Shown here piece after piece: positions 10,822 through 61,232 of a DNA stretch of 64,000 bases; the stretch's first letter is position 1, and every line of letters begins with the position of its first letter. Location: positions 22,003 to 86,002 of the forward strand of contig JBBRDT010000001.1 of assembly GCA_038203635.1 (NCBI GenBank), given 5' to 3'. The notes under the pieces were generated by a model that worked only from the letters and a program-made list of their open reading frames with translations, did not search any database and was not told the DNA's origin. A program made the translations under genes and the position numbers. This stretch comes from Solirubrobacterales bacterium (GTDB lineage: Bacteria > Actinomycetota > Thermoleophilia > Solirubrobacterales > JBBDJG01).

Positions 10822-10834
10822 ACCGGTAACGGCC

Positions 10835-10848
10835 GGAACGGCCGTTCC
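10835..10848 (+). terminator. GC-rich perfect palindrome 14 nt after the giant gene stop (possible terminator hairpin, no U-tract)
   Basis: ggaacgg|ccgttcc. There is no T-run, so this is weak. Confidence 0.2.
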
Positions 10849-10874
10849 CTCCGGGTGGCCACAGTGGTGCTAGG

Positions 10875-11915: not shown

Positions 11916-14045
11916 GTGCCCATCCTTGAAGCTGGACCGCAGCACCGCCCCCGTGCGGCCAGCCTCGCCAACAGCAATCTGACCGTCCACCAGCCGGAGA
12001 CGCTGCCGGCTGCAGTGCGGAACGACGTTCGCGTCGCTCCGCCTGTTGCACCCGTCCTGCAGCTCGCATTGTTCCTGCCGCTGGGGATCGTGGCGGTCGC
12101 AGTCATCGTCTACCTGCTCGGGGTCGGATTCGGGCCGCTCGACGGCTTCATGGGCCGCTGGGCGGTCCTGGTGCTCGAGGTCGGTGGCGCCGTCGCCTGC
12201 CTCTCACGTGCCGCCCTCGTGCGCGAGGAGCGCCGCGCCTGGACGATGATCGGCATCGGGGTGGGACTCTGGGCGGCGGGAGACGCCTACTACCGGACCG
12301 TGCTCTTCGACTCCGAGGTCCCGCCGGTCCCCTCCCCGGCGGATGCCCTCTGGCTCCTTTTCTACCCGTTCGCCTACACGGGCACCGCACTCCTCATCCG
12401 CGCCCGGGCGCGCGACGTGCGCGCGACGGTCTGGATCGACGGATTGATCGCTGCGCTCGCCGTGGCCGCGGTTGCGGCCACGGTCGTCTTCAATGTCGTC
12501 CTGGCCGGCATCGGCGGTACACCGCTCGAGACGGCCACCAACCTGGCTTACCCGCTGATGGACATGCTGCTGCTGGCGTTCGTCGTCGCAGCATTCGCGA
12601 TCACGGGGTGGCGGCTCGACCGCACCTGGATCTGGCTCGCAGTCGGCCTCGCCATCTTCGCGGTGACCGACAGCATCTACCTGTATCAAGTAGCGCGAGG
12701 TACCTACACCCCTGGCGGCGTGCTCGACGCCGGCTGGGGCGCCGCGCTCCTCGTGATGGGGCTCGCTGCCTGGCGCTTCGGGAAGGAGGCTCGACAGGCG
12801 CGAAGAGCCGAGACCTGGCGCTCGATCATCTTGCCGATCCTGTTCGGCGTCCTTGCAGTCGGGATCGAGACCTACGACCACTTCACGCGGGTGACGGTGC
12901 TGGCGCTTGGCTTGACAGGGGCATGCCTGCTGGCGGTCCTGGGCCGGCTGGCAATCACGTTCGCTCAGAACCTGCGTATGTTGCACGTAAGCCGGGAAGA
13001 GGCTGCGACCGACGCGCTGACCGGGCTCGCCAACCGCCGGCAACTCGCGATCGACCTGGACGAGGTGCACTCCAAGCCGGAAACCGAGGTTTGCTGCCTG
13101 CTCATACTGTTCGACCTCAACGGCTTCAAGCTCTACAACGACACCTTCGGCCACCCCGCCGGCGACGCGCTGCTGACGCGACTCGGAGCACGGCTGCAAA
13201 CCAGGGTCGAGGGGCAAGGCACCGCGTACCGGATGGGCGGAGACGAGTTCTGCGTGTTGGTTCCCCGTGACCAGGCGCCTGAGGTCGTGGTGCCTGCGAT
13301 CGCCGCGGCGCTCTGCGAGCGTGGCGAGGCCTTTTACATCGACTGCTCCTTTGGCTGGGCTGCATTGCCGGAGGAAGCACATGACGCCCAGGCCGCACTG
13401 CGGCTCGTCGATCAGCGCATGTATGCCCAGAAGCAGGATGGCCGGGCGAGCGCCAGCGCGCAGAGCAAGGACGTATTGCTCCAGGCGCTGGTCGAGCGCA
13501 GCCCGGCTCTCGGCCCCCACCTCACAGATGTCGCTGAACTGGCAGAGGCGACCGCGCGAGAGCTCGGGCTCACCGATTTGGAGCGCGAGCAAGTGCGTGT
13601 CGCGGGCGAGCTGCACGACATCGGCAAGGTCGCCATACCCGACGCCATCCTCGACAAGCCCGGCCCGCTCGACGACAGCGAGTGGGAGTACGTCAAGCGC
13701 CACTCCGCCGTGGGCGAAAGGATCATCGCCGCGGCCCCCGCGCTTGCCGAGGTCGCGAAGCTCGTGCGCTGCATCCACGAGCGGATCGACGGCACCGGCT
13801 ACCCGGACGGGCTGGCCGGTGACGAGATTCCCCTGGGCGCACGTCTGATCGCCGTTTGCGATGCGTACGCCGCGATGACGAACGAGCGTCCCTACCGTCT
13901 CACCATGGACACTTCCAGCGCGATCGCCGAGCTACGACGAAATGCCGGCACTCAGTTCGACCCCGAGATCGTGCGGGCCTTCTGCGTCGCGTGCGAGCGG
14001 AAGCTGGATGCCGTCCCGCTCAGCCTCGCCGCTGCCGGTGCGTAA
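11916..14045 (+). CDS. membrane-bound GGDEF + HD-GYP c-di-GMP turnover protein
   Basis: Multiple N-terminal TM helices. GGDEF domain (ATDALTGLANRRQL..GGDEFCVL). HD-GYP domain (HDIGKVAIPD..HERIDGTGYPDGL). GTG start abuts the previous ORF, and an internal start is possible. Confidence 0.85.
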   Translation: MPILEAGPQHRPRAASLANSNLTVHQPETLPAAVRNDVRVAPPVAPVLQLALFLPLGIVAVAVIVYLLGVGFGPLDGFMGRWAVLVLEVGGAVACLSRAALVREERRAWTMIGIGVGLWAAGDAYYRTVLFDSEVPPVPSPADALWLLFYPFAYTGTALLIRARARDVRATVWIDGLIAALAVAAVAATVVFNVVLAGIGGTPLETATNLAYPLMDMLLLAFVVAAFAITGWRLDRTWIWLAVGLAIFAVTDSIYLYQVARGTYTPGGVLDAGWGAALLVMGLAAWRFGKEARQARRAETWRSIILPILFGVLAVGIETYDHFTRVTVLALGLTGACLLAVLGRLAITFAQNLRMLHVSREEAATDALTGLANRRQLAIDLDEVHSKPETEVCCLLILFDLNGFKLYNDTFGHPAGDALLTRLGARLQTRVEGQGTAYRMGGDEFCVLVPRDQAPEVVVPAIAAALCERGEAFYIDCSFGWAALPEEAHDAQAALRLVDQRMYAQKQDGRASASAQSKDVLLQALVERSPALGPHLTDVAELAEATARELGLTDLEREQVRVAGELHDIGKVAIPDAILDKPGPLDDSEWEYVKRHSAVGERIIAAAPALAEVAKLVRCIHERIDGTGYPDGLAGDEIPLGARLIAVCDAYAAMTNERPYRLTMDTSSAIAELRRNAGTQFDPEIVRAFCVACERKLDAVPLSLAAAGA

Positions 14046-15149: not shown

Positions 15150-17468
15150 TTAGCGGCGACGGACCTTGAAGGTCCTGGTGACGAGTCCGCGGCCGCTGCC
15201 CTTGGACGCATACACCGTGAGCTTGTAGAAGCCGGGCAGCTCGAGGGCGGCGACGTGCAGGTATGCCGTCCCGAGCGTGTTCGTCTTACGCTCCCGCCAC
15301 CGCACCGGCGTCTTGCCGTCTCGCGAGAAGATCTGGAAGAAGAGGTGGCTCTGCGCTGCCGGCGCCCCCGAGCGCTTGAGCTTCGCACGCACCTTGACCG
15401 GCAGCTCGGATCCCACCTGCACGGCCTTGGGCATGTCCAGCGTGACGGAAAGCGGGCCACGGTCCGCCACCGGCGCTGTGCGGCGGCGGCTCGGCTCCCT
15501 TCCCGCTCCCGCCCGGCGGCGGGCCCTCCTGTTGCGCAGGTTCGGCTCGAGGCCGACGGAGGACGCGTAGTTGCCGAAGTTGTCGGTCGCTACCAGCCAG
15601 TACCGGCGCTGAACGTAGTAGGGCGCCACGATCCGGGCGGTGAACGAGCCGTCCTTGTCAGCTTTGTACGTTCCCCGGCTTGCCTGGTGGTAGTACAGGG
15701 TCACGCGAGAGTTGAACCGGAACCCGCGGCCCTTCACGGTCATCCGGTGGGTGCCGCGCCTGAAGGTGATGTGAGGCCGCGCAAGCAGCTTCGTAACCTT
15801 GTAGATCCAGGCCCGTGCCTCGTGGTTGCGGTACACGACGTGCTCCAGGCGCCCGCCGTAGGCTTCGATGAAGCGCCTGAAACGCTCCTGGTGCGACGAG
15901 TCCACGAGGGGGTTCTCCGGTGGGTCGTCGCCCTCGTCGGTGTAATAGACGAGGTAGGAGACCTCGCGACTCCTGACCAGCCGCGGAGGCCAATAGTTGA
16001 CCCAGTCACGTGACGGGCCGTCGGCGGCGGGGTGCGGACTGCGAACGACGCCTCCCGGAAAGATCGTTGCGAGCCGGAACCGGCCGAAGGGATAGGCGTC
16101 ACGATGCGCATAGAACGAGATGGCGTACTGCGCGGAGCCCTTGGAGAGCGTCATCACGCCGTCTTCCGGCTTCGTGTTCGTCTTCAGCCACTTCGCCGCT
16201 TCACGCAGCCCGAAGTACGAGTCCGTGCGCGCCACGTCGACGACCGGTGATGCCATCACCACCGCCGAGCAGAGGCCGGCAAGCAATGCCACCGGCAGCG
16301 CGATCGGCTGTGAGGCGCGCGCCAGCCATCCGACCCTGGGCCGCTGCCCCATCCGCCTCCACCGGTGCGCGATCGCCAGCACGAGGTCGTGCACCGCGCG
16401 CCCCGCCAGGATCGACAGCGGGGGAATGATCGGCAGCAGGTAGTTGAACGCCTTCAGGGGATAGGCCTGGAAGAACAGGGCCACGACGAACACCCAGAAG
16501 AGGAGCAGCCGGTCGCCCGCGCTCCATCGGCGCAACGCGATCGCGATGCCGGCGAGCCAGATCACGGGTGTCACGTAGCCGTCGAAGGCGACGAGCTTTT
16601 CGAGGTAGTAGTACCAGGGGACCTGCGTGGCACGCTGGCCGCTGTCCCCGAGGAACTCGAGCAGCTGGTCCGACTTCAGCGCGATCTGCACCATGACCGG
16701 GATGAAGAACGCGACGAACGCTGCCGAGGCGAGCAGGAAACTGCGCAGGTTCAGGCGCCGCAGCTCTCTGGAGACCAGCAGGTAGTTCAGCGCGATCACC
16801 ACGATCAGCACGCCCGTGACCTTGGCCTGGATCGTCAGCGCCGTGCAGGCCGCGAACCCGTACAACCACGCGTCGCGGCTCGTCGTGATCCATTTCGCAA
16901 AGCAGAACAGGGCCAGCGAGAACAGGAACACGAGCGACGAGTCGAGCAGCGCCAGCCTGCCGAGCAGCACGGAGTAGCCGCTGAGCGCTACGAAGAGTGC
17001 GGCCAGCAGGCCCACGTTGCGCCCATACAGCGTCTTTCCGATGCCGAAGCAGACGAGCACCGTGCCGACGCTGAAGCTGATCGCGACCAGACGGGCAATG
17101 ACGTCGGAGACCCCGAACAGCAGATAGAAGAACGCGACGACCTGCTGGTAGAACAGGAAGTTCGAGTTCCCGCGCGATGCGAGCACGAAGTAGCGGTCGA
17201 GCTGATCGTCGCCGGAGAGCACGGCCGCCTGGCCTGCGTAGACCGCTTCGTCTCCCCGGAGCCCGACGTCTGTGATCGCCCACAGTCGCGGCAGAGCGGC
17301 GATCACGAGAATCGCCCCGAGCATCAGCCTGCCGCGATGACGCCAGAGGAAATGCGTGGTCCGAGCGGCCATGGATTCGAGGGGGCGCCGGCTGCGGCCA
17401 GCCCGGAACAGGGACTCCGCCTCGGAGTCTCGGAGCAGGTGGACGACCGGTCGGAAAGGCGCCTTCAA
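15150..17468 (-). CDS. GT-C glycosyltransferase (family 39 PMT/ArnT-like) with C-terminal extracytoplasmic beta-rich domains
   Basis: About 11 TM helices, with the first-loop DE motif (LRGDEAVYAGQA) typical of PMT_2/ArnT enzymes. About 330-aa soluble tail. Start is TTG 17468 or ATG 17372. Confidence 0.8.
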   Translation of the reverse strand: MKAPFRPVVHLLRDSEAESLFRAGRSRRPLESMAARTTHFLWRHRGRLMLGAILVIAALPRLWAITDVGLRGDEAVYAGQAAVLSGDDQLDRYFVLASRGNSNFLFYQQVVAFFYLLFGVSDVIARLVAISFSVGTVLVCFGIGKTLYGRNVGLLAALFVALSGYSVLLGRLALLDSSLVFLFSLALFCFAKWITTSRDAWLYGFAACTALTIQAKVTGVLIVVIALNYLLVSRELRRLNLRSFLLASAAFVAFFIPVMVQIALKSDQLLEFLGDSGQRATQVPWYYYLEKLVAFDGYVTPVIWLAGIAIALRRWSAGDRLLLFWVFVVALFFQAYPLKAFNYLLPIIPPLSILAGRAVHDLVLAIAHRWRRMGQRPRVGWLARASQPIALPVALLAGLCSAVVMASPVVDVARTDSYFGLREAAKWLKTNTKPEDGVMTLSKGSAQYAISFYAHRDAYPFGRFRLATIFPGGVVRSPHPAADGPSRDWVNYWPPRLVRSREVSYLVYYTDEGDDPPENPLVDSSHQERFRRFIEAYGGRLEHVVYRNHEARAWIYKVTKLLARPHITFRRGTHRMTVKGRGFRFNSRVTLYYHQASRGTYKADKDGSFTARIVAPYYVQRRYWLVATDNFGNYASSVGLEPNLRNRRARRRAGAGREPSRRRTAPVADRGPLSVTLDMPKAVQVGSELPVKVRAKLKRSGAPAAQSHLFFQIFSRDGKTPVRWRERKTNTLGTAYLHVAALELPGFYKLTVYASKGSGRGLVTRTFKVRRR

Positions 17469-17475
17469 CTCGCGG

Positions 17476-19863
17476 CTAGGAGACGGGGCTGCCCATGACC
17501 GCCGGCAATTTCTGCCACCAGTCCATGGTGCTGCTGGCGATCAGAGTCGCCGGGACGCTGCCAAAGGCGCGGGTCACGATGTCGCGCTCCGCGGCCTTCA
17601 GGTCGTGCCCGCTCATCCCCTGCAGGAACTCCTCGATCCTGGAGTAAGGCGGGAAGCCGAAGGCGTCCTCGCAGTTCTCCCTCAGGATCTCGAGCGCCTC
17701 CTCGGTATCCATCTGGATCTGGTAGTCGCCGTCGCGCTGGATGATCACCAGCCCGGCAATCTGAGCCTCGGGAGCGACCCGGGCAGTCGGGATCAGGCGG
17801 TCGATGTCGTACTTGGGCGGTGGAATCAGCCTCTGGACGACCGCGTTGAGCGTCGCCGCCGGGATCCGCATCGCGGCCAGCACCATCGCGAACCGGCGGC
17901 CCGACCGGGAATGAAGGCGGCTCTGTGGAACCAGCTTCACCCGCTCACGCCTCGACAGCAGCGGCGTCTTGACGGCATGCACCGTGTGCCGGCTGATCGT
18001 CAGCGGCTTCGGATACGCCAGCACGCGGCCGTCCGGGCACACGATCGTGAGGTCATCGGAAAGGAACGAGTACGGGAAGTGGTCGAGCAGCTTCAGTGTC
18101 GTGGTCGTCTTGCCGGTGTCGGTGCGGGCGGTGACCATGAACCCCTGATCGCCGTCGGCGAAGCACGCGGCGTGCACGAGCGCGTATCCCTTGCTGGCGA
18201 ACGTCCAGCGCAGGATCGGCTCGACGACGTTGGTGTACAGCACGTGCGGAGAGCGCTGCAAAAGCGGCGCCGCCAGCACCTCGATGCGCTCGCCCAGGTG
18301 AGAGATTTCGCACCCGAAGCCGAAGCCGCCGACACCCTCCGAGTAGCGGAGCGTACGCGGCTTGACGGGACCCAGCTCCGGGAATTCGGCCGTGATGTCC
18401 GAGTCGTGGTGCCCGTTGCCGTTTCCGTTGCCGTTGACGTGTCCGTTTCCGTTGACGTGTCCGTTGCCGTTCGCGTGTCCGTTGCCGTTGCCGTTGGGTG
18501 TCACGTTCCCGTTGCTCTCGGGGCGACCGCGCATGTGGCCGATCCGGACGCGGATCGTCGGGCGGCTGAGAGCCTCCGTCACGAGGAACCGGTGCAGCTC
18601 CGGCAGCCGCACCTCGGACGTGACCGTGACGATGCCGTGGATGTCGTAACTGAACGAGCCCACGTCCCGGCGCTGGGCCTTGGCCCAGATCCACGCATCG
18701 GCGACGCCGAACCGGATGATGGTGAGCGCGACCAGCGAAAGGATGTTCGACGCCAGGTAGTGCATCCCCAGACCGGTCGTCAGCACGAACAGCAGCGGCA
18801 CCCGCAGCACAAGCGCGGCGTTGTTCATGGCGAAGAACATCGCCGCACGACGCCCGCGTGTTCGCTCGTGCTCGCGACCGGCGAACACCCAGCCTTCCGT
18901 GAAGCAGAAGTTCCACAGGGTGGAGCCCTGGGTCGCGAGGATCGCGGCGGCCACGTAGTACAGCCCGGCCACGTCCGCGAACAGCGCCAGCAGCAGGGTG
19001 TTGACGGCCAGGCCCGTGGCCCCCACCACGGTGAAGCGGCCGAACCGCGCCGTCAGCTGACCCAGCTGCAACCGGCCCAGCTGGCCCACGTACCGCAGCG
19101 CCTCGCGCACGGACGCCTTGGTCTCGCCGGCGTGGCGCTCGCCGAACCCGAACGGCACCTCGGACACGGTCAATCCGGGTGTCCGGACGAGGATCTCGAG
19201 CAGGATCTTGAAACCCCGTGGCCGCAGCCGATCGAGGTCGACGGCCTCCCGCCGGACCACGAAGCAACCGCTCATCGGGTCGCTCACGTGCCACAGGCTC
19301 TTCGGGAAGAGCAGCATCGCCGCCCGCGTGGAGACGCTTGACAGGGCCGAGCGCAGCCGCCCGAACGCACCTTTGTCCCCTCCCGCGCAGAACCGGCTCG
19401 CGACCACCAGGTCCGACGCCGTTCCGAGCGCCTCCAGGTACATCTCCTCGAGTATCTCCGGGGGATGCTGCAGGTCGGCGTCCATGACGCACACGAACGG
19501 CGCCCGCGCCTGCCGCATCCCGGCGACCACGGCGCCTCCCAGCCCGCCCTGGCGATCGCCCAGCGGGCGATGGATGAGGTAGACGGCGCGCGAGGACTCG
19601 ATCGCCCGGATCGCGTCCGGGGTGTCGTCGTCGCTGTCGTCGACGAAGATGACCTCCACCGGCAGGTCCGGCAGCACGCGGTCGAGCCGCGAAACTAGCG
19701 GTCCCACGTTCCCTGCCTCGGCCCTGGTCGGGACGATCACCGAGACCGCCGGCGTGGTTCCGTTCAGGCTGCGGCCGGCCGCCAATACGGCGTCCGCAGC
19801 GCCCTTAGAGATGACTCCGTTCTCGCGCGACCGAGCGGCGCGCGACCTGAATGCAATGTTCAA
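17476..19863 (-). CDS. fusion protein: GT2 polyprenol-phosphate glycosyltransferase + GtrA-like TM domain + N/G/H repeat linker + HprK-like P-loop domain
   Basis: GT2 core VSVIVPTRAEAGNVGPL..VIFVDDSDDDTPD..VMDADLQHPP. GtrA-like region RFGRFTVVGATGLAVNTLLL..WNFCFTEGWVF. Linker NGNGNGHANGNGHVNGNGHVNGNGNGNGHH. C-terminal segment LVHAACFADGDQGFMVTARTDTGKTTTTLKLL..FLSDDL resembles HPr-kinase-C-type P-loop proteins. Confidence 0.8.
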   Translation of the reverse strand: MNIAFRSRAARSRENGVISKGAADAVLAAGRSLNGTTPAVSVIVPTRAEAGNVGPLVSRLDRVLPDLPVEVIFVDDSDDDTPDAIRAIESSRAVYLIHRPLGDRQGGLGGAVVAGMRQARAPFVCVMDADLQHPPEILEEMYLEALGTASDLVVASRFCAGGDKGAFGRLRSALSSVSTRAAMLLFPKSLWHVSDPMSGCFVVRREAVDLDRLRPRGFKILLEILVRTPGLTVSEVPFGFGERHAGETKASVREALRYVGQLGRLQLGQLTARFGRFTVVGATGLAVNTLLLALFADVAGLYYVAAAILATQGSTLWNFCFTEGWVFAGREHERTRGRRAAMFFAMNNAALVLRVPLLFVLTTGLGMHYLASNILSLVALTIIRFGVADAWIWAKAQRRDVGSFSYDIHGIVTVTSEVRLPELHRFLVTEALSRPTIRVRIGHMRGRPESNGNVTPNGNGNGHANGNGHVNGNGHVNGNGNGNGHHDSDITAEFPELGPVKPRTLRYSEGVGGFGFGCEISHLGERIEVLAAPLLQRSPHVLYTNVVEPILRWTFASKGYALVHAACFADGDQGFMVTARTDTGKTTTTLKLLDHFPYSFLSDDLTIVCPDGRVLAYPKPLTISRHTVHAVKTPLLSRRERVKLVPQSRLHSRSGRRFAMVLAAMRIPAATLNAVVQRLIPPPKYDIDRLIPTARVAPEAQIAGLVIIQRDGDYQIQMDTEEALEILRENCEDAFGFPPYSRIEEFLQGMSGHDLKAAERDIVTRAFGSVPATLIASSTMDWWQKLPAVMGSPVS
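18406..18516 (-). repeat. coding microsatellite-like repeat (GTT GCC/GTT GAC GTG TCC units) encoding (NG)n/(NGH) linker
   Basis: Plus strand reads ccgttgccgtttccgttgccgttgacgtgtccgtttccgttgacgtgtccgttgccgttcgcgtgtccgttgccgttgccgtt. Confidence 0.85.
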
Positions 19864-20172: not shown

Positions 20173-23100
20173 ATGCATAAACGGAGGGGGATCGCGTGCG
20201 TCGCGATCGTTGGCGCGCTGTTCGCCCACTTCGGCGCAGCCGGTGCGTCTGCTGCCGACCCGGTGATCGCGGCGGCCGGCGACATCGCCTGCAGCTCCTC
20301 GAGCTCCAACTACAACGGCGGCAACGGGGTGTCCGACCGCTGCCGGCAGAAGTACACGTCCAACCTGATCTTCAACGCAGGCCTCTCGGCGGTCCTCGTG
20401 CTGGGCGACATGCAGTACGAGAGCGCCAGCCTGTCGGGCATCAATAGCTCCTACAACCCGACCTGGGGCCGGGTGAAGTCGATCACCCGCCCGGCGCTTG
20501 GGAACCACGAGTACAAGACGGCCAACGCGGCGGGCTACTTCGACTACTTCAACGGCAGCGGCGCCGCCACGGGCCCGGCCGGCGAGCGCGGCAAGGGCTA
20601 CTACAGCTTCGACGTCGGCACCTGGCATTTGATCGCGCTCAACTCGAGCGACCACTGCACGATCGTGTCGTGCGCGGCCGCCTCGGCACAGGAGGTCTGG
20701 CTGAAGGCCGACCTTGCGGCCAACTCGTCGAAGTACTGCACGCTCGCCTTTTGGCACGACCCGCGCTTCAACTCGGGCCACGACGGCAACGCCGACGAGA
20801 TGAAGCCGCTTTTCCAGGCTCTCTACGACGCGAACGCCGACCTCATGCTCGGCGGGCACGCACACAGCTACGAGCGCTTCGCGCCTCAGAATCCGGCCGG
20901 CGGGCTTGACAATGCGCGCGGCATCCGCCAGTTCGTGGTGGGCACGGGCGGCGCATTCTGGACGAGCATCGGCACGCCGAAGCCCAACAGCGAAGTGCGT
21001 CAAAACAGCACGTACGGCGTGCTGAAACTGACTCTCAGACCCACGGGCTACGACTATCAGTTCGCCCCCGAGGCGGGCAAGACGTTCACCGACTCCGGCA
21101 CGGGCACGTGCCATGGCGGCACGCCGCCCCCGACCGACACGATCAAGCCCTCGATCCCCGGCAACGTGCGCGCCACCGCGGGCACGGGTCAGGTCTCGCT
21201 GCTCTGGAACCAGTCCACGGACAACGTGGGCGTCACGGGGTACCAGGTGTTCCGGGGCGCGACGCAGGTCGCGACGCTCGGCTCGGTCACCTCGTACACC
21301 GACCCCAACCTCGCGCCGGGCACCTACAGCTACACGGTGCGCGCAGTGGACGGCGCGGGCAACGTCTCCGACGCCAGCGCTGCGGCAAGCGCGACGGTCG
21401 CGGACACCACCAAGCCGACGCCGCCGACGCTCACGGCCACGGCGAGCGCGGGACAGGTCGCCCTCAGCTGGCAGGGGGCCACCGACAACGTTGGAGTGAC
21501 CGGGTACCAGCTGTACCGGGGAGCCACGCAGATCGCCACTCTGGGAGGCGCCGTCACGTCGTACACCGACGCAAATCTCGCGGCAGGCGGCTACAGCTAC
21601 ACCGTGCGCGCCGTCGACGCCGCGGGCCTCTCCTCGGACGCCAGCAACACTGCCAGCGCGACCGTGCCCGACACGACCAAGCCGACGACCCCCACCCTGT
21701 CAGCGACCGGCAGCGCGGGGCAGGTCGCGCTGAGCTGGACGGTGTCCACCGACAACGTCGCAGTCACGGGATACGAGGTGTTCCGCGGCTCGGTGCGGAT
21801 CGCGGTCCTCGGCCCCTCCGCCAACTCCTATGCCGACACCGGCCTCTCGCCCGGCACCTACTTCTACGCCGTGCGGTCCTTCGACGCGGCCAACAACTTC
21901 TCGATTTCGAGCAACACCGCGAGCGGGACCGTGCCCGACGGGCTGAAGCCGAGCGCCCCGGGCAACCTGACCGCCTCCGCGCCGACGTCGGCCGCGGTCG
22001 ACCTGAGCTGGGTGGCTTCGACCGACAACGTGGGCGTGACCGGCTACAGGGTCTACCGCGACGGTGCACTGATCGCCAGCCCGGGGGCGGCGGCCACCTC
22101 CTACAGCGACTCGGCTGTCTCCGCGACCGTCACCTATCACTACGTCGTGCGCGCGATCGACGCCGCAGGCAACCTCTCCGACCCCAGCAGCGACGTGCCC
22201 GTGACGGTGCCCGACACCGTCAAGCCCAGCGCTCCGGGGAACCTCCACACGACCGCGGTGACCTCCAGCCAGGTGGACCTCGCCTGGAACGCGTCTACCG
22301 ACAACGTCGCCGTGACCGGCTACCGCGTGTTCCGCAATGACGTGCCGATCGCGGACGTGAGCGCCGCGACCCTGTCTTACTCGGACGGCCCGATCACCCC
22401 GGGCACCTACCGCTACACCGTGCGCGCGGTCGACGGTGCCGGGAACGTCTCGGACGCGAGCACCGAGGTGACGGCCACGGTGCCCGACACGGAGAAGCCC
22501 ACGACCCCCCAGAACCTCGACGCCACCGCCCGAGGCGCTTTCCAGGTCGACCTCACGTGGGACGCATCCACCGACAACGTCGGCGTGGCCAGCTACCTGA
22601 TCTACCGCAACGACGTGCACATCGACACGGTTAGCGGCACGGACACCTCGTACACGGACAACGTGCTCGCCCCGGACCTCTACACGTACTACGTGCGCGC
22701 GGTGGACGACGCGGGGAACCTCTCCGACCCCAGCAACACCGACTCCGCGACTGTCGTCCCGCCGGACGATGAGCTTCCAACGGTGCCGGGCAACCTGACG
22801 GCCGCCTTGAACGGGACGGACCGGGTCGACCTGAACTGGGAGGAGTCGAGCGACAACGTCCTCGTCACCGGGTACCGGATCTACCGCAACGACGAGCTGA
22901 TCAAGACGATCGGCCCGGGATCGTCTTGGTCCGACACCGGGGTCCCCGCGCGTGACCACGAATACCGCGTGCGGGCCGAGGACGCCGCCGGCAACCTTTC
23001 CGACCCGAGCAACCCGGCGGGCGTGATCGTGCCCGACACTGCGCCCCCGTCACCTCCGGGCAACCTCACCGCGAGCGCGCCGGACGGAGGCCCCGTGCTG

Positions 23101-25347
23101 CTCGAGTGGGAGGCCGCGGACGACAACGTCGGGGTCGCCGGATATGAGGTCTACAGGGACGGTGCGTTCATCGCCTCGATCGATCCGGGCACCTCCTACT
23201 CCGACCCGGTCGGCGCAGGGACCTACGCGTACCACCTCAAGGCGATGGATCCGACGGGGAACATGTCGCAGGCGAGCAACACCGCAAACGTGACCGAGCT
23301 CGCGCCGGACACGGAGGACCCCGGTCCGCCGGCAAACCTCCAGGCGCAGGTCGCGGCCGGAAAGGTCGACCTCCTTTGGGACGCCGCCACGGACAACAGG
23401 GCGGTGACGCAATACGAGATCCGCCGCGACGGCGCGGTCGTCGCAACGATCGGGGCCGCCTCGACGTCGTGGTCCGACAGCAACGTCACGGCGCCGGTCA
23501 CGTACGAGTACGACGTACGCGCGCTCGACGCGGCGGCGAACGTGTCGCTGCCCAGCAACACCGCGAGCGCGACGGTGCCCGACACGCAGAAGCCGACGCC
23601 GCCCACGAACCTGACCGCGAACGCCACCGCGAGCCAGGTCGACCTCACGTGGGGTGCGGCGGGCGACGACGTGGCGGTTACGCAATACAGGATCTATCGC
23701 GATGGTGCGGCGATCGCGACGATCGGCCCGGGAACCTCGTGGTCCGACAGCAGTGTCACGGCTCCCGGCTACGAGTATGAGGTGCGGGCGCTCGACGCGG
23801 CCGACAACCTCTCCGACCCCAGCAACAAGGTCACCGCCACCGTGCTCGATGCCCAGAAGCCCACTGCGCCCGGGACCCTGACGGCTACCGCCGCCGGGCC
23901 GAACCAGGTCAACCTCACCTGGACGGCATCAGGCGACAACATCGGCGTGACGGGCTACCGCGTCTACCGTGACACGGCGCCGATCGCGACCATCGGAGCG
24001 GTCACCACCTTCTCTGACACGGGCGTTGCCGGCAGCACCACCTATGCGTACGAGGTCCGCGCCCTGGATGCCGCCGGCAACGTCTCCGATCCGAGCAACA
24101 CCGCCCCGGCGACCACGCCGGCCGCCTCCGCCGTGTTCAACTTCTCACCGGAGGCCGATGCCCGTACCCAGGCCTCGGCGGCCACCACCAACTACGCAAC
24201 GAGCTTCCTGCGGGTCGACGGCGGTACCGACCCGGCCGTGGAGAGCCTGCTGCGGTTCACGGTCACCGGCGCGCCGGCAGGATCAATCCGAAGCGCCAAG
24301 CTGCGCGTGTACGCCTACAGTGGAACCGTGGACGGACCGGCAGTCTTCACCACCAATCCCGCCTGGAACGAGCAGGCGATCAACTGGAACAACCGCCCAC
24401 CGCGCACCAGCGCGACCACCGATGACAAGGGCGCGATCGCGACCAACAGCTGGGTCGAGTACGACGTCACCTCCTTCGTCACGAGCAACGGCACCTACAG
24501 CTTCGGGCTGGCCGGCACCTCCACCGACGGCGTCGACATCTACTCAAAGGAATCCGCGACCCTGCGACCGGAGCTCGTGGTGACGACCGGCGCCCCGGAC
24601 ACGCAGAAGCCCACGCCGCCACCCACCCTCGCCGCGACCGTCATGACCGCGTCGCGGGTCGATCTCTCCTGGCAGCCCGCGGGCGACAACGTCGGGGTGA
24701 CCGGCTACCAGGTCCTGCGCAACGGCAACCAGATCGCGAGCCTCGGGGTGACGACGGCGTACTCCGACACGTCCGTCGCGGCGAACACTTCCTACACCTA
24801 CCAGGTCCGCGCGGTGGACGCCGCCGGCAACGTCTCGGACCCCAGCAACTCCGCGCCGGCCGCGACACCGCCGGTGGCGACGGTGCTGACCCTCTCCCCC
24901 GAGGCGGACGCCCGTACCCAGGAGGCGAACCCGACCACCAACTACGGGACCGCCTACCTGCGCGTGAACGGCGGCTCCGAGCTGGACGTCGAGACCCTCG
25001 TGCGCTTCACCGTGACCGGAGCCCCGGCGGGAAGCGTGGCGAGCGCCAAGCTGCGCCTCTACAACTACAACGGCACCGCGGACGGCCCGGCTCTTTACCC
25101 GACCGTCACATCCTGGAACGAGACCGCGGTCAGCTGGAACACGCGACCGGCCCGCACGAGTGGTACCCCGACGGACGACAAGGGCGCGATCGCGAAAAAC
25201 ACCTGGGTCGAGTACAACGTGACGCCTCTCGTGACCGGGAACGGCACGTACAGCTTCGCCCTGGCCACGACCTCCAGCGACGGCATCGACTTCTACAACC
25301 GCGAGGCGGCAACGCTGCGCCCCGAGCTCGTGGTGACGCTGCGCTAG
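20173..25347 (+). CDS. giant secreted protein: PAP-type metallophosphoesterase + 12 FN3 repeats + 2 DNRLRE-like beta-sandwich modules
   Basis: ATG 20173 gives the signal peptide MHKRRGIACVAIVGALFAHFGAAGASA|ADP. Motifs GDIAC / GDMQY / GNHEY / FWHDP / GHAHSYE. FN3 units read KP(S/T)xPxNLTAxAxxxxxVDLSWxASTDNVGVTGYRVYRDG...YxYxVRAxDAAGNxSDPS. Two ~150-aa modules carry NY(A/G)T..LRV..LxRFTV..AKLR(V/L)Y..W(N)E..(I/V)xWN(N/T)RP..RPELVVT. Confidence 0.9.
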   Translation: MHKRRGIACVAIVGALFAHFGAAGASAADPVIAAAGDIACSSSSSNYNGGNGVSDRCRQKYTSNLIFNAGLSAVLVLGDMQYESASLSGINSSYNPTWGRVKSITRPALGNHEYKTANAAGYFDYFNGSGAATGPAGERGKGYYSFDVGTWHLIALNSSDHCTIVSCAAASAQEVWLKADLAANSSKYCTLAFWHDPRFNSGHDGNADEMKPLFQALYDANADLMLGGHAHSYERFAPQNPAGGLDNARGIRQFVVGTGGAFWTSIGTPKPNSEVRQNSTYGVLKLTLRPTGYDYQFAPEAGKTFTDSGTGTCHGGTPPPTDTIKPSIPGNVRATAGTGQVSLLWNQSTDNVGVTGYQVFRGATQVATLGSVTSYTDPNLAPGTYSYTVRAVDGAGNVSDASAAASATVADTTKPTPPTLTATASAGQVALSWQGATDNVGVTGYQLYRGATQIATLGGAVTSYTDANLAAGGYSYTVRAVDAAGLSSDASNTASATVPDTTKPTTPTLSATGSAGQVALSWTVSTDNVAVTGYEVFRGSVRIAVLGPSANSYADTGLSPGTYFYAVRSFDAANNFSISSNTASGTVPDGLKPSAPGNLTASAPTSAAVDLSWVASTDNVGVTGYRVYRDGALIASPGAAATSYSDSAVSATVTYHYVVRAIDAAGNLSDPSSDVPVTVPDTVKPSAPGNLHTTAVTSSQVDLAWNASTDNVAVTGYRVFRNDVPIADVSAATLSYSDGPITPGTYRYTVRAVDGAGNVSDASTEVTATVPDTEKPTTPQNLDATARGAFQVDLTWDASTDNVGVASYLIYRNDVHIDTVSGTDTSYTDNVLAPDLYTYYVRAVDDAGNLSDPSNTDSATVVPPDDELPTVPGNLTAALNGTDRVDLNWEESSDNVLVTGYRIYRNDELIKTIGPGSSWSDTGVPARDHEYRVRAEDAAGNLSDPSNPAGVIVPDTAPPSPPGNLTASAPDGGPVLLEWEAADDNVGVAGYEVYRDGAFIASIDPGTSYSDPVGAGTYAYHLKAMDPTGNMSQASNTANVTELAPDTEDPGPPANLQAQVAAGKVDLLWDAATDNRAVTQYEIRRDGAVVATIGAASTSWSDSNVTAPVTYEYDVRALDAAANVSLPSNTASATVPDTQKPTPPTNLTANATASQVDLTWGAAGDDVAVTQYRIYRDGAAIATIGPGTSWSDSSVTAPGYEYEVRALDAADNLSDPSNKVTATVLDAQKPTAPGTLTATAAGPNQVNLTWTASGDNIGVTGYRVYRDTAPIATIGAVTTFSDTGVAGSTTYAYEVRALDAAGNVSDPSNTAPATTPAASAVFNFSPEADARTQASAATTNYATSFLRVDGGTDPAVESLLRFTVTGAPAGSIRSAKLRVYAYSGTVDGPAVFTTNPAWNEQAINWNNRPPRTSATTDDKGAIATNSWVEYDVTSFVTSNGTYSFGLAGTSTDGVDIYSKESATLRPELVVTTGAPDTQKPTPPPTLAATVMTASRVDLSWQPAGDNVGVTGYQVLRNGNQIASLGVTTAYSDTSVAANTSYTYQVRAVDAAGNVSDPSNSAPAATPPVATVLTLSPEADARTQEANPTTNYGTAYLRVNGGSELDVETLVRFTVTGAPAGSVASAKLRLYNYNGTADGPALYPTVTSWNETAVSWNTRPARTSGTPTDDKGAIAKNTWVEYNVTPLVTGNGTYSFALATTSSDGIDFYNREAATLRPELVVTLR
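21142..24120 (+). repeat. coding tandem array of 11 FN3 units (~280 nt each); a 12th unit lies at ~24601..24870
   Basis: WxxSTDNVGVTGY(R/Q/E)V(Y/F)R recurs in each unit. Confidence 0.85.
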
Positions 25348-25349
25348 CC

Positions 25350-26300
25350 ATGCGCCTCCTCCCGAACAAGAGAAGGCTGCTGATCGGCGCCATCGCGGCC
25401 GCGATCGTCCTGTCATCCGTCGCTCTCGTGCTGGGCGTGGCCGACTCGGCGTCGCCGCCCGAGTCCGGCCCGAAGGTCGACACGCACGTCGACCACTCAT
25501 ACATCTACACGGTCGACGTTGCCAGCGGACAGCTCGCCCAGGAGACCAATATGCAGGGCGAGGGAGCGCTGGAGCCTTCCTGGTCCGCCCAGGGCGACAT
25601 CGTCTTCAGCACCATGGACTGCGACGAGTGCTCCTCGAGCCTCTCCGAGGTGGACCCCGATGCCCCCATCTCCGTCGAGGCACCGATCGACACGACCGTC
25701 GAGCACGTGTTCCAGCCGTCCTGGGCGCCCGACGGTAAGCAGGTCGCAACGGTGGCACTCGGCCGCGGCATCTACGTCGTCGACTCGCAGACCGGCACGG
25801 CGAAGCGGCTGACGTCCGGCCGGTCGGACGAGGCGCCGGACTGGGCCGCCAGCGGAGACTGGATCGCGTTCCACCGGCAGGTGAGCGGCAGCAACTACGA
25901 CATCTTCGCCGTCAACGCCACCACGAAGGCGGAGCGCAGGCTCACGAACGACAACCGGCAACAGACGAATCCCACCTGGTCGCCGGACGGCAGTCAGGTG
26001 GCTTACGCCGAGCAGCGCTCCAACGGGAAGTGGGCGATCGTCACGATGAACGCCGACGGCACGGGTCGCAAGCGCGTGACGACCGCGGGCATCAGCGCCC
26101 AGGAGCCCACCTGGTCGCCCGATGGCACGAGCATCGCATTCATCTTGCAGGAGCTGGACAAGGCTACGATCGCGGTGATTCCCGCGAGCGGGGGCTCGCC
26201 GAAGCGCCTGACGGACCAGAAGATATTTCCCGCAAAGCCGACCTGGTCGCCGGACAGCAAGACCATTGCGTTCGCCGCGACCGTGGTTCAAACGAATTGA
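25350..26300 (+). CDS. membrane-anchored PD40/TolB-like beta-propeller protein
   Basis: N-terminal anchor LLIGAIAAAIVLSSVALVLG. At least six PD40 signatures (PSWSAQGDIVF, PSWAPDGKQVA, APDWAASGDWIAF, NPTWSPDGSQVAY, EPTWSPDGTSIAF, KPTWSPDSKTIAF). Starts 2 nt after the upstream stop. Confidence 0.8.
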   Translation: MRLLPNKRRLLIGAIAAAIVLSSVALVLGVADSASPPESGPKVDTHVDHSYIYTVDVASGQLAQETNMQGEGALEPSWSAQGDIVFSTMDCDECSSSLSEVDPDAPISVEAPIDTTVEHVFQPSWAPDGKQVATVALGRGIYVVDSQTGTAKRLTSGRSDEAPDWAASGDWIAFHRQVSGSNYDIFAVNATTKAERRLTNDNRQQTNPTWSPDGSQVAYAEQRSNGKWAIVTMNADGTGRKRVTTAGISAQEPTWSPDGTSIAFILQELDKATIAVIPASGGSPKRLTDQKIFPAKPTWSPDSKTIAFAATVVQTN

Positions 26301-26304
26301 GGCA

Positions 26305-27789
26305 ATGACGCTGAGCACGTGGGCGAAGGAACGCCCGGCATCCACAGATCTCGTCGTACTGGTCTTACTCGCCGTCGCATTCGCGGTGGCGGTCCTGCCG
26401 TCACAGGCGCGCGCCGCGGACCCGGTGATCGCGGCGGCCGGCAACATCGCCTGCGACCCTGCCAGCCCGTACTTCGCAGCGGGCGCGGGGACCCCTACCC
26501 GGTGCCGTCAGGCCGAGACCGCGGCGTTGCTGCCGGCCGGCCTCGCGGGCGTGCTGACTCTCGGGGACGCCCAGTACTGCTGCGGCACCCTGTCCGCGTA
26601 CACGGCTTCCTACGAGCCGGCCTGGGGCCCGCTGAAGGCTGTCACGCATCCGGCGCTCGGCAATCGTGACTACACGACGCCGGGCGCAGCCGGGTACTTC
26701 GACTACTTCAACGGGCCGGGAATTGCGGATGGCGCGGCGGGCAACCGGGACCAGGGGTACTACAGCTTCGATCTCGGCGCATGGCATCTCATCGCGCTCA
26801 ACTCGAACTGCGCTCACGTCGCCTGCGCAGCCGGCTCTGCGCAGGAGCGCTGGCTGCGCGCAGACCTCGCTGCCCATCCCAACGCCTGCACGCTTGCATA
26901 CATGCACGCGGGGCGCTACAGCTCCGGACGACCGGGCGGCGCGATCTCGGTGGCGCCTTTCTACAGGGCTCTCTACGAGGCCGGGGCCGACGTGGCCCTG
27001 GCGGGCCACGCACGGCACTACGAGCGGTTCGCGCCCCAGACCTCGGTCGGGCGCAGCCCCGCGTTCGGCATCCGTGAGTTCGTGGTCGGCACGGGCGGGC
27101 ACTCCCTGGGCACGATCGGAGCGCCCAAGAAGTACAGCGAGGTACGCCAGGACTCGACGTTCGGAGCGCTGGAGCTCACGCTACGGGCGACCGGCTACTC
27201 CTGGCGATTCATCGCCCCCGGGGGCGCGAGCTTCTCCGACTCGGGATCGGGTGGGTGTCACGGCCCGCCGCCTCCGCGCAAGCCCAAGAAGAAGCCCAAG
27301 CCCAAGCCCAAGCCGGGGCCCGCAAAGAGCAAGACGAAGTGCACCGTGCTCGGGACCCCGCGCAACGACGTCCTGCGGGGCACCCGTGGCCGGGACGTGC
27401 TCTGCGGCATGGGGGGCAACGACCGCCTCCTGGGCGGCGGCGGCAATGACGTGCTGCGCGGTGGTGACGGCAACGACCGGCTCAGCGGCGGCGCCGGGCG
27501 CGATCGCATGGACGGCAACCGCGGGAACGACGTCCTGCGTGGGGGACGAGGCCGGGACCTGCTCAGCGGAGGCGCCGGCAACGACCTGCTGCGCGGGGGA
27601 GGCGGCGCGGACCGTCTCCGCGGCGACGGCGGGCGCAACCGCGTGTTCGGTGACGCGGGCAACGACTACATCGACGTGTCCCGAAACGGAGCCCGCGACA
27701 TCGTCAACGGCGGGCGCGGCCGGGACAGGGCGAAGGCCCAACGCCGCGACAAGGTGCGCAGCATCGAGCGGCTGATCCGCCGCAAGTAG
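26305..27789 (+). CDS. secreted PAP-type metallophosphoesterase paralog with substituted active-site residues + basic KP linker + RTX-type Ca-binding nonapeptide repeats
   Basis: Signal peptide ..AVLPSQARA|ADPVIAAAGNIAC, the same mature N-terminus as the 20173 protein. Motifs GNIAC / GDAQY / GNRDY / YMHAG / GHARHYE. KPKKKPKPKPKPGP linker. About 10 GGxGxDxLx repeats. Confidence 0.85.
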   Translation: MTLSTWAKERPASTDLVVLVLLAVAFAVAVLPSQARAADPVIAAAGNIACDPASPYFAAGAGTPTRCRQAETAALLPAGLAGVLTLGDAQYCCGTLSAYTASYEPAWGPLKAVTHPALGNRDYTTPGAAGYFDYFNGPGIADGAAGNRDQGYYSFDLGAWHLIALNSNCAHVACAAGSAQERWLRADLAAHPNACTLAYMHAGRYSSGRPGGAISVAPFYRALYEAGADVALAGHARHYERFAPQTSVGRSPAFGIREFVVGTGGHSLGTIGAPKKYSEVRQDSTFGALELTLRATGYSWRFIAPGGASFSDSGSGGCHGPPPPRKPKKKPKPKPKPGPAKSKTKCTVLGTPRNDVLRGTRGRDVLCGMGGNDRLLGGGGNDVLRGGDGNDRLSGGAGRDRMDGNRGNDVLRGGRGRDLLSGGAGNDLLRGGGGADRLRGDGGRNRVFGDAGNDYIDVSRNGARDIVNGGRGRDRAKAQRRDKVRSIERLIRRK

Positions 27790-27802: not shown

Positions 27803-28606
27803 CTACTTGCTGAAGCTCACCAGTTCTTCGCGCCCGCCGCCATCCTTGGTGGTCCGCAACACGTGCCCGACGCCCCGGGCGTAGTACTTGTATTCCAGGA
27901 CCCCCGGCTCGAGCCGGGTCGTGTCCGCTGTCTTCACGGAATTCTCGAAGGTGCCGAACGGCACGGTGACCTTCGCATCCACGCTCACCACCTTGGCGGC
28001 GTCCTCGGCCTGGCCCGCGTAGTACTCCTGCCGGTAGGACAGCCCGGACCGCGGCTTCGCCGGCATGATGACCCCGGCATAGGCGCCGTCCACGCCGTGC
28101 TCCCAGGACCCCTTGGTCGACGAGACCGTCCCGTCCTTGTACTCCTTGGTGTCCTCGCCCAGATACCAGACATTGCCGTCCTTGTCCTGGGCATACCAGT
28201 CATCCGTGACCTCCACGAAGCCGCCGCCGTCGCGCTGGGTGACGGTGTCGCGCAGGACGAGGGCCTCGACGCCCTTGATCCGCTTCTTGCGGTTCGTCAC
28301 CTCGACGACGATCCGCTCCGAATCCGACGTGTAGACCCACCTCGCGCCCCGCGGCATCGGCCAGTAGGGGTGCTCGATCTTCGTCGTGAAGTCCGCGGGG
28401 TCGAGCTCGACCGGCTCGCCGCCCTGCGGCAGGTCGGCAGTGCTGTCGGCGGAGGTCGTCTCGGTCGTGGCGGTCGGGGGCGCCGCGGTCGTGGTCTGAG
28501 CAGCATTGTCGTCGCTGTCAGACCCGCAGCCCGCGACGAGCAACCCCGCCGTGAGCGCCAGTGCGAGCGCTCCGCCGACGATCAAGAGCATCGGGCGTCT
28601 CGTCAC
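27803..28606 (-). CDS. lipoprotein of unknown family (paralog of 1501..2388)
   Basis: GTG 28606 (or ATG 28591) gives VTRRPMLLIVGGALALALTAGLLVAGC|GS. The upstream Arg-rich ORF extension was rejected. DDWYAQDKDGNVWYLGE and YYARGVGHV match the 1.5-kb paralog. Confidence 0.7.
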   Translation of the reverse strand: MTRRPMLLIVGGALALALTAGLLVAGCGSDSDDNAAQTTTAAPPTATTETTSADSTADLPQGGEPVELDPADFTTKIEHPYWPMPRGARWVYTSDSERIVVEVTNRKKRIKGVEALVLRDTVTQRDGGGFVEVTDDWYAQDKDGNVWYLGEDTKEYKDGTVSSTKGSWEHGVDGAYAGVIMPAKPRSGLSYRQEYYAGQAEDAAKVVSVDAKVTVPFGTFENSVKTADTTRLEPGVLEYKYYARGVGHVLRTTKDGGGREELVSFSK

Positions 28607-28613
28607 CTGCGTG

Positions 28614-28958
28614 TCACCGCTCCGGATCAGGACCGTAGCCCTCGACCCTGGCCTGCAGCCAGTGGAAGTCGCGGTCCAGGTACACCGCGATGATCGGGCC
28701 CTTGTCGGAGCCGTCCAGGGCCTGGGTCGGCTTGAAGACCCTGACCTTCCAGGCGGCCATGCCTGCGTTGTCGTGCGCGACCGATACGACCTTCCCGCGC
28801 TTGGTGACCTCGAGCGCGGCCCGCTCGGCCCGCTCGGTTTGGGCATCTGCGACCTTGGTGTCGGACTCGCCGTCCACGGCCTGTGCGATGCCGACTGCGC
28901 CCGCGCTCAGCGCGACGGCCAGCATTCCGGCAATCAATATTTTGTGAATTCGTGTCAT
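28614..28958 (-). CDS. PepSY domain secreted protein
   Basis: Signal peptide MTRIHKILIAGMLAVALSAGAVGIAQA. The size and the ..AALEVTKRGKVVSVAHDN..AWKVRV.. pattern are typical of PepSY. Sits downstream of a two-component system. Confidence 0.7.
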   Translation of the reverse strand: MTRIHKILIAGMLAVALSAGAVGIAQAVDGESDTKVADAQTERAERAALEVTKRGKVVSVAHDNAGMAAWKVRVFKPTQALDGSDKGPIIAVYLDRDFHWLQARVEGYGPDPER

Positions 28959-61159: not shown

Positions 61160-61232
61160 AGCGGACGACGGGGGTCGAACCCGCGACCTTCGGCTTGGGA
61201 AGCCGACGCTCTACCAACTGAGCTACGTCCGC
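61160..61232 (-). tRNA. tRNA-Gly(CCC): tRNA-Gly (anticodon CCC)
   Basis: The minus strand folds as a cloverleaf. Acceptor GCGGACG/CGTCCGC. D arm GCTC-AGTTGGTA-GAGC. Anticodon arm TCGGC-TTCCCAA-GCCGA. Variable AGGTC. T arm GCGGG-TTCGACC-CCCGT. Discriminator U. No encoded CCA. Confidence 0.9.

Follow-up and report, generated by a model that had tools for sequence, protein, structure and literature searches.

Why would a bacterium retain a secreted phosphoesterase-like protein in which residues expected to bind metal and to catalyse hydrolysis have been replaced? The question is raised by a gene at 26305-27789 on the + strand of a 64,000-nucleotide (nt) stretch of the genome of a Solirubrobacterales bacterium (NCBI GenBank assembly GCA_038203635.1, contig JBBRDT010000001.1, positions 22,003 to 86,002), which we refer to as the window; genes and their products are named here after their first coordinate. 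We propose, with a probability of roughly 0.6, that the 26305 protein is a secreted pseudoenzyme of the purple acid phosphatase (PAP) fold, and that it acts as a docking or adaptor protein as the third product of a three-gene surface module. Support at the level of the sequences comes from ligand loss, clade-wide conservation, selection, synteny, fold, and the occurrence of fusions between PD40 and metallophosphoesterase (MPE) domains. The module consists of the following genes:

20173-25347, + strand: opening gene of the operon, for a giant secreted protein whose head is intact (7/7 ligands) and which has ~13 FN3 domains and 2 CBM96 domains.
25350-26300, + strand: PD40 gene, 316 amino acids (aa), with an N-terminal hydrophobic anchor or signal and a TolB-like propeller (PF07676, 6e-28).
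26305-27789, + strand: coding sequence for the PAP-like/RTX protein with the degenerate head, 494 aa and a stop codon (ATG at 26305, stop at 27787-27789).

The genes are separated by gaps of 2 nt (25348-25349) and 4 nt (26301-26304). Since the next gene (27803-28846) is convergent, the 26305 gene is the last of the + strand run, as a preliminary description of the window, made from the sequence alone, had stated.

A search with the head domain returned ~8000 relatives, the best 117 of which were aligned with the two window heads. Within this aligned set, 61 sequences carry D/H/H at positions 47/121/237 and are treated here as intact, putatively active heads, 54 are of the N/R/R type, and 4 are otherwise degenerate. 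The N/R/R sequences form a monophyletic group in a neighbour-joining tree, which we call the degenerate clade. The 26305 and 20173 heads are themselves 56-57% identical over ~300 aa (tblastn 2e-96). The preliminary description had reported three substitutions between them (D47N, H121R and H237R) and the retention of GDxxY and of the lone His, all of which is correct at the codon level:

Motif I, N47, 26443-26445, + strand: GDIAC in 20173, GNIAC in 26305 (GAC>AAC); N in 48/51 of the degenerate clade, D in 61/61 intact relatives.
Motif II, D88 and Tyr91: GDMQY in 20173, GDAQY in 26305; Asp and Tyr kept.
Motif III, R121, 26665-26667, + strand: GNHEY in 20173, GNRDY in 26305 (CAC>CGT); R in 49, L in 3 and V in 2 of the degenerate clade, H in 61/61 intact relatives.
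Motif IV, H201: WH in 20173, MH in 26305; His kept.
Motif V, R237, 27013-27015, + strand: GHAHSYE in 20173, GHARHYE in 26305 (CAC>CGG); R in 50, K in 3 and P in 1 of the degenerate clade, H in 61/61 intact relatives.

The 26305 protein had also been counted as the third paralogue in the window, and the 2542 protein indeed has a classical PAP head (GDWG/GDNAY/GNHD/GHSH).

In PAP structures such as those of kidney bean PAP and uteroferrin, the Fe(III) or M1 ion has three ligands of its own, namely the Asp of motif I, the Tyr of motif II and the second GHxH His. The M2 ion is bound by the GNH Asn, the motif IV His and the first GHxH His, with the Asp of motif II shared between both ions as a bridge; the His of GNH is catalytic or second-shell. 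By these assignments, the 26305 head lacks two of its three predicted M1-only ligands (D47N, H237R) as well as the catalytic His. Counted against a published seven-residue consensus (PMC7642983), it keeps 5/7 canonical ligands. We therefore consider it very probable that the 26305 protein is not a dimetal hydrolase. The incomplete ligand set, the lost catalytic His and the Pfam scores all suggest a head that is no competent PAP: PF00149 (Metallophos) gave no match to the 26305 protein at E <= 0.01, the orthologue P0002 reaches 17.1 bits, below the cut-off of 21.5, and the intact 20173 paralogue passes with 23.6 bits.

The degenerate clade comprises ~54 clusters with 59-87% identity to the window head, and the RTX tail is missing from a few fragments only. 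Members with a stated taxon come from metagenome-assembled genomes (MAGs) of Solirubrobacterales or unclassified Actinomycetota, and the others from soil metagenomes. The replacement residues are themselves conserved within the clade, N being rarely D, R121 rarely L or V, and R237 rarely K or P. D/H/H is also kept in nearly all other open reading frames (ORFs) of the family from species-representative genomes. Exactly four positions are conserved at 80% or more in each clade on different residues, namely 47 (N/D), 121 (R/H), 237 (R/H) and 269 (G/T); as three of these four are 47, 121 and 237, the three residues first noticed in the window copy are a clade signature. Several residues conserved among the intact relatives have become variable in the degenerate clade, including R109 (60/61), W200 (56/61), H202 (51/61) and the ligand N120 (59/61). 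Further ligands have been lost among the orthologues (D88>S in 18; N120>T/S/A/H/R; H235>Y/Q/G/D/S/F). On the seven-ligand tally, members of the clade keep 1-5, with 18 of them keeping only 2 and the window copy, at 5, standing at the maximum; all 7 are present in 57/61 intact relatives. A sister group (P0056, P0062, P0072 and P0074) has kept all M1-only ligands and lost two or three M2-only ligands together with the GNH His, and one of its members sits at the same operon position (L004). It appears that the metal centre was dismantled in two different ways in two branches, a pattern expected once catalysis no longer mattered.

Locus L004 shows a further peculiarity: its giant head (L004:2991-5534) is 84-89% identical to the others, and its third gene (P0056, L004:10001-11539) only 57-61%, which points either to much faster evolution or to replacement by a paralogue. 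Another RTX-bearing paralogue clade from the same MAGs has the first His of GHxH changed to Asp (GDAHDYERF / ADAHSYERF). It is found in L012, L013, L015, L016, L017, L019, L021, L023, L024 and L057, with the match at ~9001-10400 in most, and in the L012 copy motif I additionally shows Gln and the GNH Asn is replaced by Ile. These paralogues may have an altered metal site or represent a second route of degeneration. One more feature on the former active-site loops sets the degenerate clade apart from the intact relatives:

26578-26583, + strand: vicinal Cys pair C92-C93 right after GDAQY; C in 41/54 of the degenerate clade at both positions, D/E/N and S/T in the intact relatives.

The pair is also present in the sister clade and occurs in 0/61 intact relatives, and it might form a vicinal disulfide at the rim of the former active site. 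We had considered it as a defining feature and downgraded it, since L008, L009 and L010 lack it.

Whether such a gene is maintained or merely decaying can be judged from its substitution pattern. Codon alignments of the window gene with orthologues from eight MAG loci were analysed by the Nei-Gojobori method (NG86) and by maximum likelihood (ML) for the ratio of nonsynonymous to synonymous substitution rates (dN/dS). For the closest pairs the degenerate head gives 0.11-0.15 (NG86) and 0.02-0.07 (ML), and the active giant head of the same genome pairs gives 0.09-0.24 (NG86) and ~0.002-0.06 (ML); because dS is at or beyond saturation (>1 by ML), these ratios are imprecise and upper-bound in style, although all lie far below 1. 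The RTX part is somewhat higher, at 0.2-0.45 (NG86). Between the window and L009, dN is 0.148 for the degenerate head versus 0.099 for the active head, an only modest increase. The two paralogous heads thus resemble each other in dN/dS, neither being near 1, and such a low value in the head, like that of the active paralogue, indicates that the 26305 gene is no pseudogene. Its maintenance by purifying selection is, in our view, practically certain.

Three catalytic-residue changes in a single gene could nevertheless be taken as a sign of a decaying pseudogene, of a recent inactivation private to the window genome, or of a sequencing artefact, and the MAG orthologues in L018 and L025 do appear frame-shifted. 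This explanation can hardly be entertained, as the 494-aa frame is intact and the same substitutions recur in ~54 clusters down to 59% identity, with dN/dS of 0.02-0.15 and with conservation of the signal peptide, Cys pattern, linker, RTX block and C-terminus. The assemblies behind the frame-shifted copies are MAGs that have other long genes in pieces as well, an example being the giant gene in L004. In that locus (L004:3102-8995) the giant gene is split into at least 4 called genes, and in L018 and L025 it is the degenerate-head gene that is truncated or frame-shifted; the broken genes of these three loci are probably assembly errors rather than real pseudogenes. We therefore rejected the pseudogene reading on the grounds of conservation and dN/dS. 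The earlier view of a maintained protein with an intact frame and a preserved signal peptide is borne out by the 494-aa ORF, by the ADPVIAAAG that follows the signal in both the 26305 and the 20173 proteins, by the fixation of the substitutions in a monophyletic clade with relaxation of active-clade residues, by dN/dS far below 1, and by the conserved operon position.

That position is shared by all ten orthologous loci with enough upstream flank (L001/L006, L002/L010, L003, L004, L007, L008, L009, L018 and L025), nine of which belong to the degenerate clade and one, L004, to the sister clade. In every one of them a giant FN3/CBM96 gene with an intact head (DIAC ... GHAHxYERF) is followed by a TolB-like PD40 gene and then by a degenerate head with RTX. 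Giant orthologues with intact heads were seen in L001-L010 and L018, and the PD40 gene lies directly 5' of the degenerate gene in L001-L004. The flanks of the orthologous loci comprise, upstream and divergent, a GT2+GtrA fusion and a PMT-family glycosyltransferase and, downstream, a histidine kinase, a response regulator and PPK2. As far as the response regulator, the window shows this same layout. The PD40 protein also matches the TolB propeller model TIGR02800 (5.7e-40, under the cut-off).

A pairing of propeller and phosphoesterase is also seen outside the operon family. In other Thermoleophilia, PD40 is fused N-terminally to an intact head within a single ORF (L031:7927-9891, L060:7987-9870, L062:8053-9885 and L072:672-2669; Pfam PD40 + Metallophos), and the domain order of the fusions equals the order of the PD40 and 26305 genes, with their gap of 4 nt. 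Such fusion is a classical but indirect sign of physical cooperation between PD40 and head, and suggests it here. In the window, the gene for the giant PAP-headed protein at 2542-10821 likewise precedes a PD40-like gene. Additional candidates for PD40-phosphoesterase fusions are L037, L046, L063, L070, L078 and L080, the last with an in-frame stop.

The protein itself is built from four parts, to which the following features were assigned:

26305-26415, + strand: Sec-type signal peptide, residues 1-37, with core LVVLVLLAVAFAVAVL and an A-x-A site, putatively cleaved after ARA.
26416-27264, + strand: PAP-like MPE-fold head, residues 38-320, predicted to be catalytically degenerate; predicted local distance difference test (pLDDT) mostly >90 in the AlphaFold 2 (AF2) model.
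27265-27339, + strand: polybasic Pro/Lys linker PPPPRKPKKKPKPKPKPGPAKSKTK, residues 321-345; isoelectric point (pI) 11.6, charge +11, low pLDDT.
27340-27786, + strand: RTX beta-roll and basic C-terminus (GGRGRDRA...VER..RRK), with 12 phased GGxGxDxUx nonapeptides and invariant Cys346/Cys367.

The AF2 model has a mean pLDDT of 91.6, and its head has, as modelled, the alpha/beta sandwich fold of the metallophosphoesterases. The best Foldseek matches in the PDB are plant and mammalian PAPs (E ~1e-10, probability 1.00), with a target-normalised template modelling (TM) score of ~0.7 to the mammalian PAPs, and GAP50 (3tgh) and Vps29 appear further down the list. The ATG start is backed by the N-termini of the orthologues (MTLSTWAKERP / MKLSTGAKERL). 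The signal peptide, recognised by a hydrophobic core and an A-x-A site and ending ...PSQARA, is a putative one, and its helix (14-29) has low pLDDT. A mature N-terminus ADPV(I/V)AAAG is common across the clade, ADPVIAAAG being the form of the window protein. Orthologues have also kept the signal cleavage site, six shared cysteines, the linker and Cys346/Cys367, as well as the RTX Asp in every repeat and, at the C-terminus, GGRGRDRA...VER..RR. The median charge of the linker is +7 in the degenerate clade versus +1 in active RTX-bearing relatives, so that a strongly polybasic linker is, as far as the aligned sequences indicate, specific to the degenerate clade. The RTX repeats (PF00353, E = 6.8e-37) are the sole Pfam family matched in the 26305 protein, and in the AF2 model they give a short beta-strand every 9 residues at a pLDDT of 95-97. 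The RTX block of the window protein has a pI of 11.3, and RTX modules are basic family-wide, with a median pI of ~10.5 in degenerate and active members alike. A search of NCBIfam gave sub-threshold RTX and TolB matches only, and an exact-sequence look-up of the 26305 protein returned no record.

Given these different parts, we propose a model in which the module would consist of a giant active phosphoesterase on an FN3/CBM96 stalk, a TolB-like PD40 propeller, and a degenerate head with RTX. The PD40 propeller, and possibly also the active head of the paralogue, would dock onto the degenerate head or be joined through it as an adaptor. Attachment of the whole to the anionic cell envelope or matrix would fall to the polybasic linker, together with the RTX beta-roll, which is basic and stabilised by Ca2+. 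In this exact wording the adaptor/anchor mechanism is tentative, and we would put it somewhat below even odds. Lack of activity, physical docking and envelope attachment are what we infer from the sequences, and the terms 'binding protein' and 'stalk' in the preliminary description are to be read in the same way.

The conservation of the replacement arginines also favours a rival reading. In this alternative the protein would be a metal-free receptor and, beside the active giant, a substrate-trap lectin: a putative pocket formed by R121, R237, R204, H201 and Tyr91 would bind a polymer through its phosphate, sulfate or carboxylate and leave it uncleaved. Candidate ligands are teichoic-acid-like polymers, phospho-glycans, extracellular DNA and anionic exopolysaccharides. 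The replacements are not random (R237 in 50/54, R121 in 49/54), R204 is invariant, and the former active-site loops carry new clade-typical residues (C92-C93, Y/H266 and G269). The giant, moreover, carries CBM96, a family defined on an alginate-binding module, that is, one for an anionic polysaccharide (PMC9971899). Yet several of the closest relatives (P0001, P0006, P0008 and P0012) have Leu or Val in place of R121, which weakened the candidacy of R121 as an essential anion-binding residue, the likely ancestral substrate holders R109, H202 and W200 are relaxed, and the Cys-Cys pair is missing from L008, L009 and L010. A receptor of this kind thus seems rather unlikely to us. Similarly improbable is the broader proposition of a metal-free module, with two conserved arginines in the former dimetal site, that would act as the tethering or receptor subunit of a three-part surface machine found lineage-wide in soil Actinobacteria.

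Several observations weigh against the docking or adaptor pseudoenzyme that we favour. All relatives are MAG or metagenome sequences, and the saturation of dS described above limits what the selection analysis can say. The PD40 fusions carry active heads, not degenerate ones, and docking, as suggested by fusion and synteny, is unproved. Furthermore, motif I was not reached in any sequence alignment to a solved PAP or to Pfam: phmmer searches of both heads against the PDB, a search of the PDB with the 119-sequence profile, Pfam scans of intact relatives and an hhalign comparison with the 2542 PAP head all gave alignments that begin at motif II, because a family-specific, disulfide-rich insertion of ~40 residues lies between motifs I and II. 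In the AF2 model the candidate motif I immediately follows the first beta-strand (E41-45), and it resembles the beta-strand-GD pattern of the 2542 PAP head (FAVFGDWG); its assignment is thus drawn from the beta-1 topology of the model, the GD pattern, and an Asp in 61/61 intact relatives. In the intact 20173 head, GDxxY, GNHE, the lone His and GHxHxYER align in register with the wheat, sweet potato and kidney bean PAPs. The earlier identification of the substituted positions with canonical PAP ligands therefore stands by alignment for motifs II-V, and for motif I by topology and conservation only.

The remaining points on this side concern catalysis. The 26305 head keeps every M2 ligand (D88, N120, H201 and H235) and Tyr91, so a mononuclear site is possible for the 26305 protein itself. 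In addition, LpxH is naturally GNR and an active enzyme (PMC3087551), so that the change of the GNH His to Arg is not decisive alone. On these grounds the protein might be a phosphoesterase with altered catalysis, either mononuclear (M2-only) or Arg-assisted in the manner of the LpxH GNR, with His238 as a possible stand-in ligand in the subclade of the window. Not only the window copy but also its closest relatives keep D88, Y91, N120, H201 and H235, H238 is present in 25/54 clade members, and purifying selection matches that on the active paralogue in strength. Within the orthologous, syntenic clade, however, the M2 ligands have been freely replaced, 18 members keeping 2/7, and a conserved function therefore cannot depend on them. 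LpxH, moreover, keeps all its metal ligands, whereas the 26305 protein has lost two. An Arg at a metal-ligand position normally excludes metal, which also counts against altered catalysis. We regard this explanation as decidedly improbable, more so than an anion-binding receptor, and continue to favour a docking or adaptor pseudoenzyme.

The surroundings of the operon offer further observations. The PMT-family glycosyltransferase and the GT2+GtrA fusion, encoded at 15150-17468 and 17476-19863 on the - strand of the window, are divergent from the giant and kept in L001-L003, and in the giant, Thr/Pro-rich linkers (VPDTxKPTxP) recur between the FN3 domains. By inference only, the glycosyltransferase pair has the look of a system dedicated to O-glycosylating the giant. 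A second operon on the + strand (2542-14045) encodes a protein of 2759 aa, in which a classical PAP head (Pur_ac_phosph_N + Metallophos) is combined with 17 DUF11 repeats, followed by a PD40-like gene at 10875-11915 and a GGDEF + HD-GYP protein at 11916-14045, which suggests a link between surface giants and cyclic di-GMP signalling. A scan of the window with Rfam at the gathering threshold found a tRNA (61160-61232, - strand) only, and no riboswitch near the operon.

Collectively, the locus offers a natural experiment, in which an intact and a degenerate paralogue are encoded in one operon and ligand loss has been stepwise and lineage-specific, affecting M1 in one branch and M2 in its sister. 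Should the metal-free module with its tethering or receptor role, considered improbable above, prove real, the pairing of propeller and MPE that occurs elsewhere as gene fusions would represent an architecture for phosphoester processing outside the cell that is general in Thermoleophilia and undescribed. The annotation of such proteins is affected as well: relatives are labelled at source as 'hypothetical', 'acid phosphatase type 7' or 'RTX toxin-like', and the latter two labels mislead when the phosphorus-cycling potential of soils is inferred from metagenomes. While the role is inferred and the hosts are uncultured Solirubrobacterales, we consider the impact moderate. Pseudoenzymes derived from MPEs are known from eukaryotes (GAP50, Vps29 and polymerase B subunits), and a full-text literature search found no description of a bacterial (secreted) metallophosphoesterase pseudoenzyme.

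How the 26305 protein relates to better-known systems can be seen by taking its parts in turn. With the PAPs (kidney bean, sweet potato, wheat PAPhy and pig/human ACP5; 4dhl, 1xzw, 6git, 1ute and 2bq8) the head shares the fold and the GDxxY Tyr at 15-20% identity, but it lacks the motif I Asp, the GNH His, the second GHxH His and the PAP N-terminal domain, and adds the ~40-residue disulfide-rich insertion and the C-terminal RTX. Classical type I-secreted RTX blocks are acidic. The 26305 protein has the same nonapeptides as the RTX proteins of Gram-negative type I secretion (CyaA, serralysins and lipases), and its tail matches RTX blocks of CyaA, with E down to 6e-45 in the profile comparison, and of lipase and serralysin, but it differs from them in its Sec signal, its basic repeats, its monoderm actinobacterial host, and an Arg-rich C-terminus in place of a type I secretion signal. 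By its repeats and modelled beta-roll it would thus be a true RTX protein, and by these other properties probably not a type I secretion substrate. LpxH, which hydrolyses UDP-2,3-diacylglucosamine, shares the natural His to Arg change in the GNH(D/E) block (PMC3087551), but it belongs to an unrelated subfamily, keeps the other blocks, and is an active, cytoplasmic or membrane-associated Mn enzyme. Rv2577/MmpE of Mycobacterium tuberculosis is a secreted actinobacterial PAP-type phosphatase/diesterase that carries the consensus of seven residues (PMC7642983). It can be compared with the 2542 and 20173 heads and, being active with all seven ligands, differs from the 26305 protein, which is without the full set.

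The closest parallels in function, rather than in descent, are to be sought among the inactive members of the fold. Vps29 and other inactive MPE-fold proteins serve as scaffolds for protein-protein interactions. Vps29 of retromer/retriever (8sym, 1z2w) is among the fold matches at ~10% identity, but consists of a minimal MPE domain of ~180 aa and is cytosolic and eukaryotic. GAP50 (3tgh) ranks 28th in the Foldseek list at 16% identity and differs in being eukaryotic, in being anchored by a C-terminal transmembrane helix, in being without RTX, and in having no active paralogue encoded beside it. Common descent with GAP50 or Vps29 is unsupported, the likeness being one of fold at 10-16% identity; as the degenerate clade arises inside a bacterial family of active enzymes, its loss of ligands is independent of theirs. 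In Apicomplexa, GAP50 has the PAP fold with catalytic residues mostly unconserved, phosphatase activity of recombinant TgGAP50 was not detected, and the protein is the membrane anchor of a larger machine (PMC2172186). It would thus be the functionally closest analogy to an adaptor or anchor, and by this analogy the 26305 protein may work like the known MPE-fold pseudoenzymes, to which it is related by fold only.

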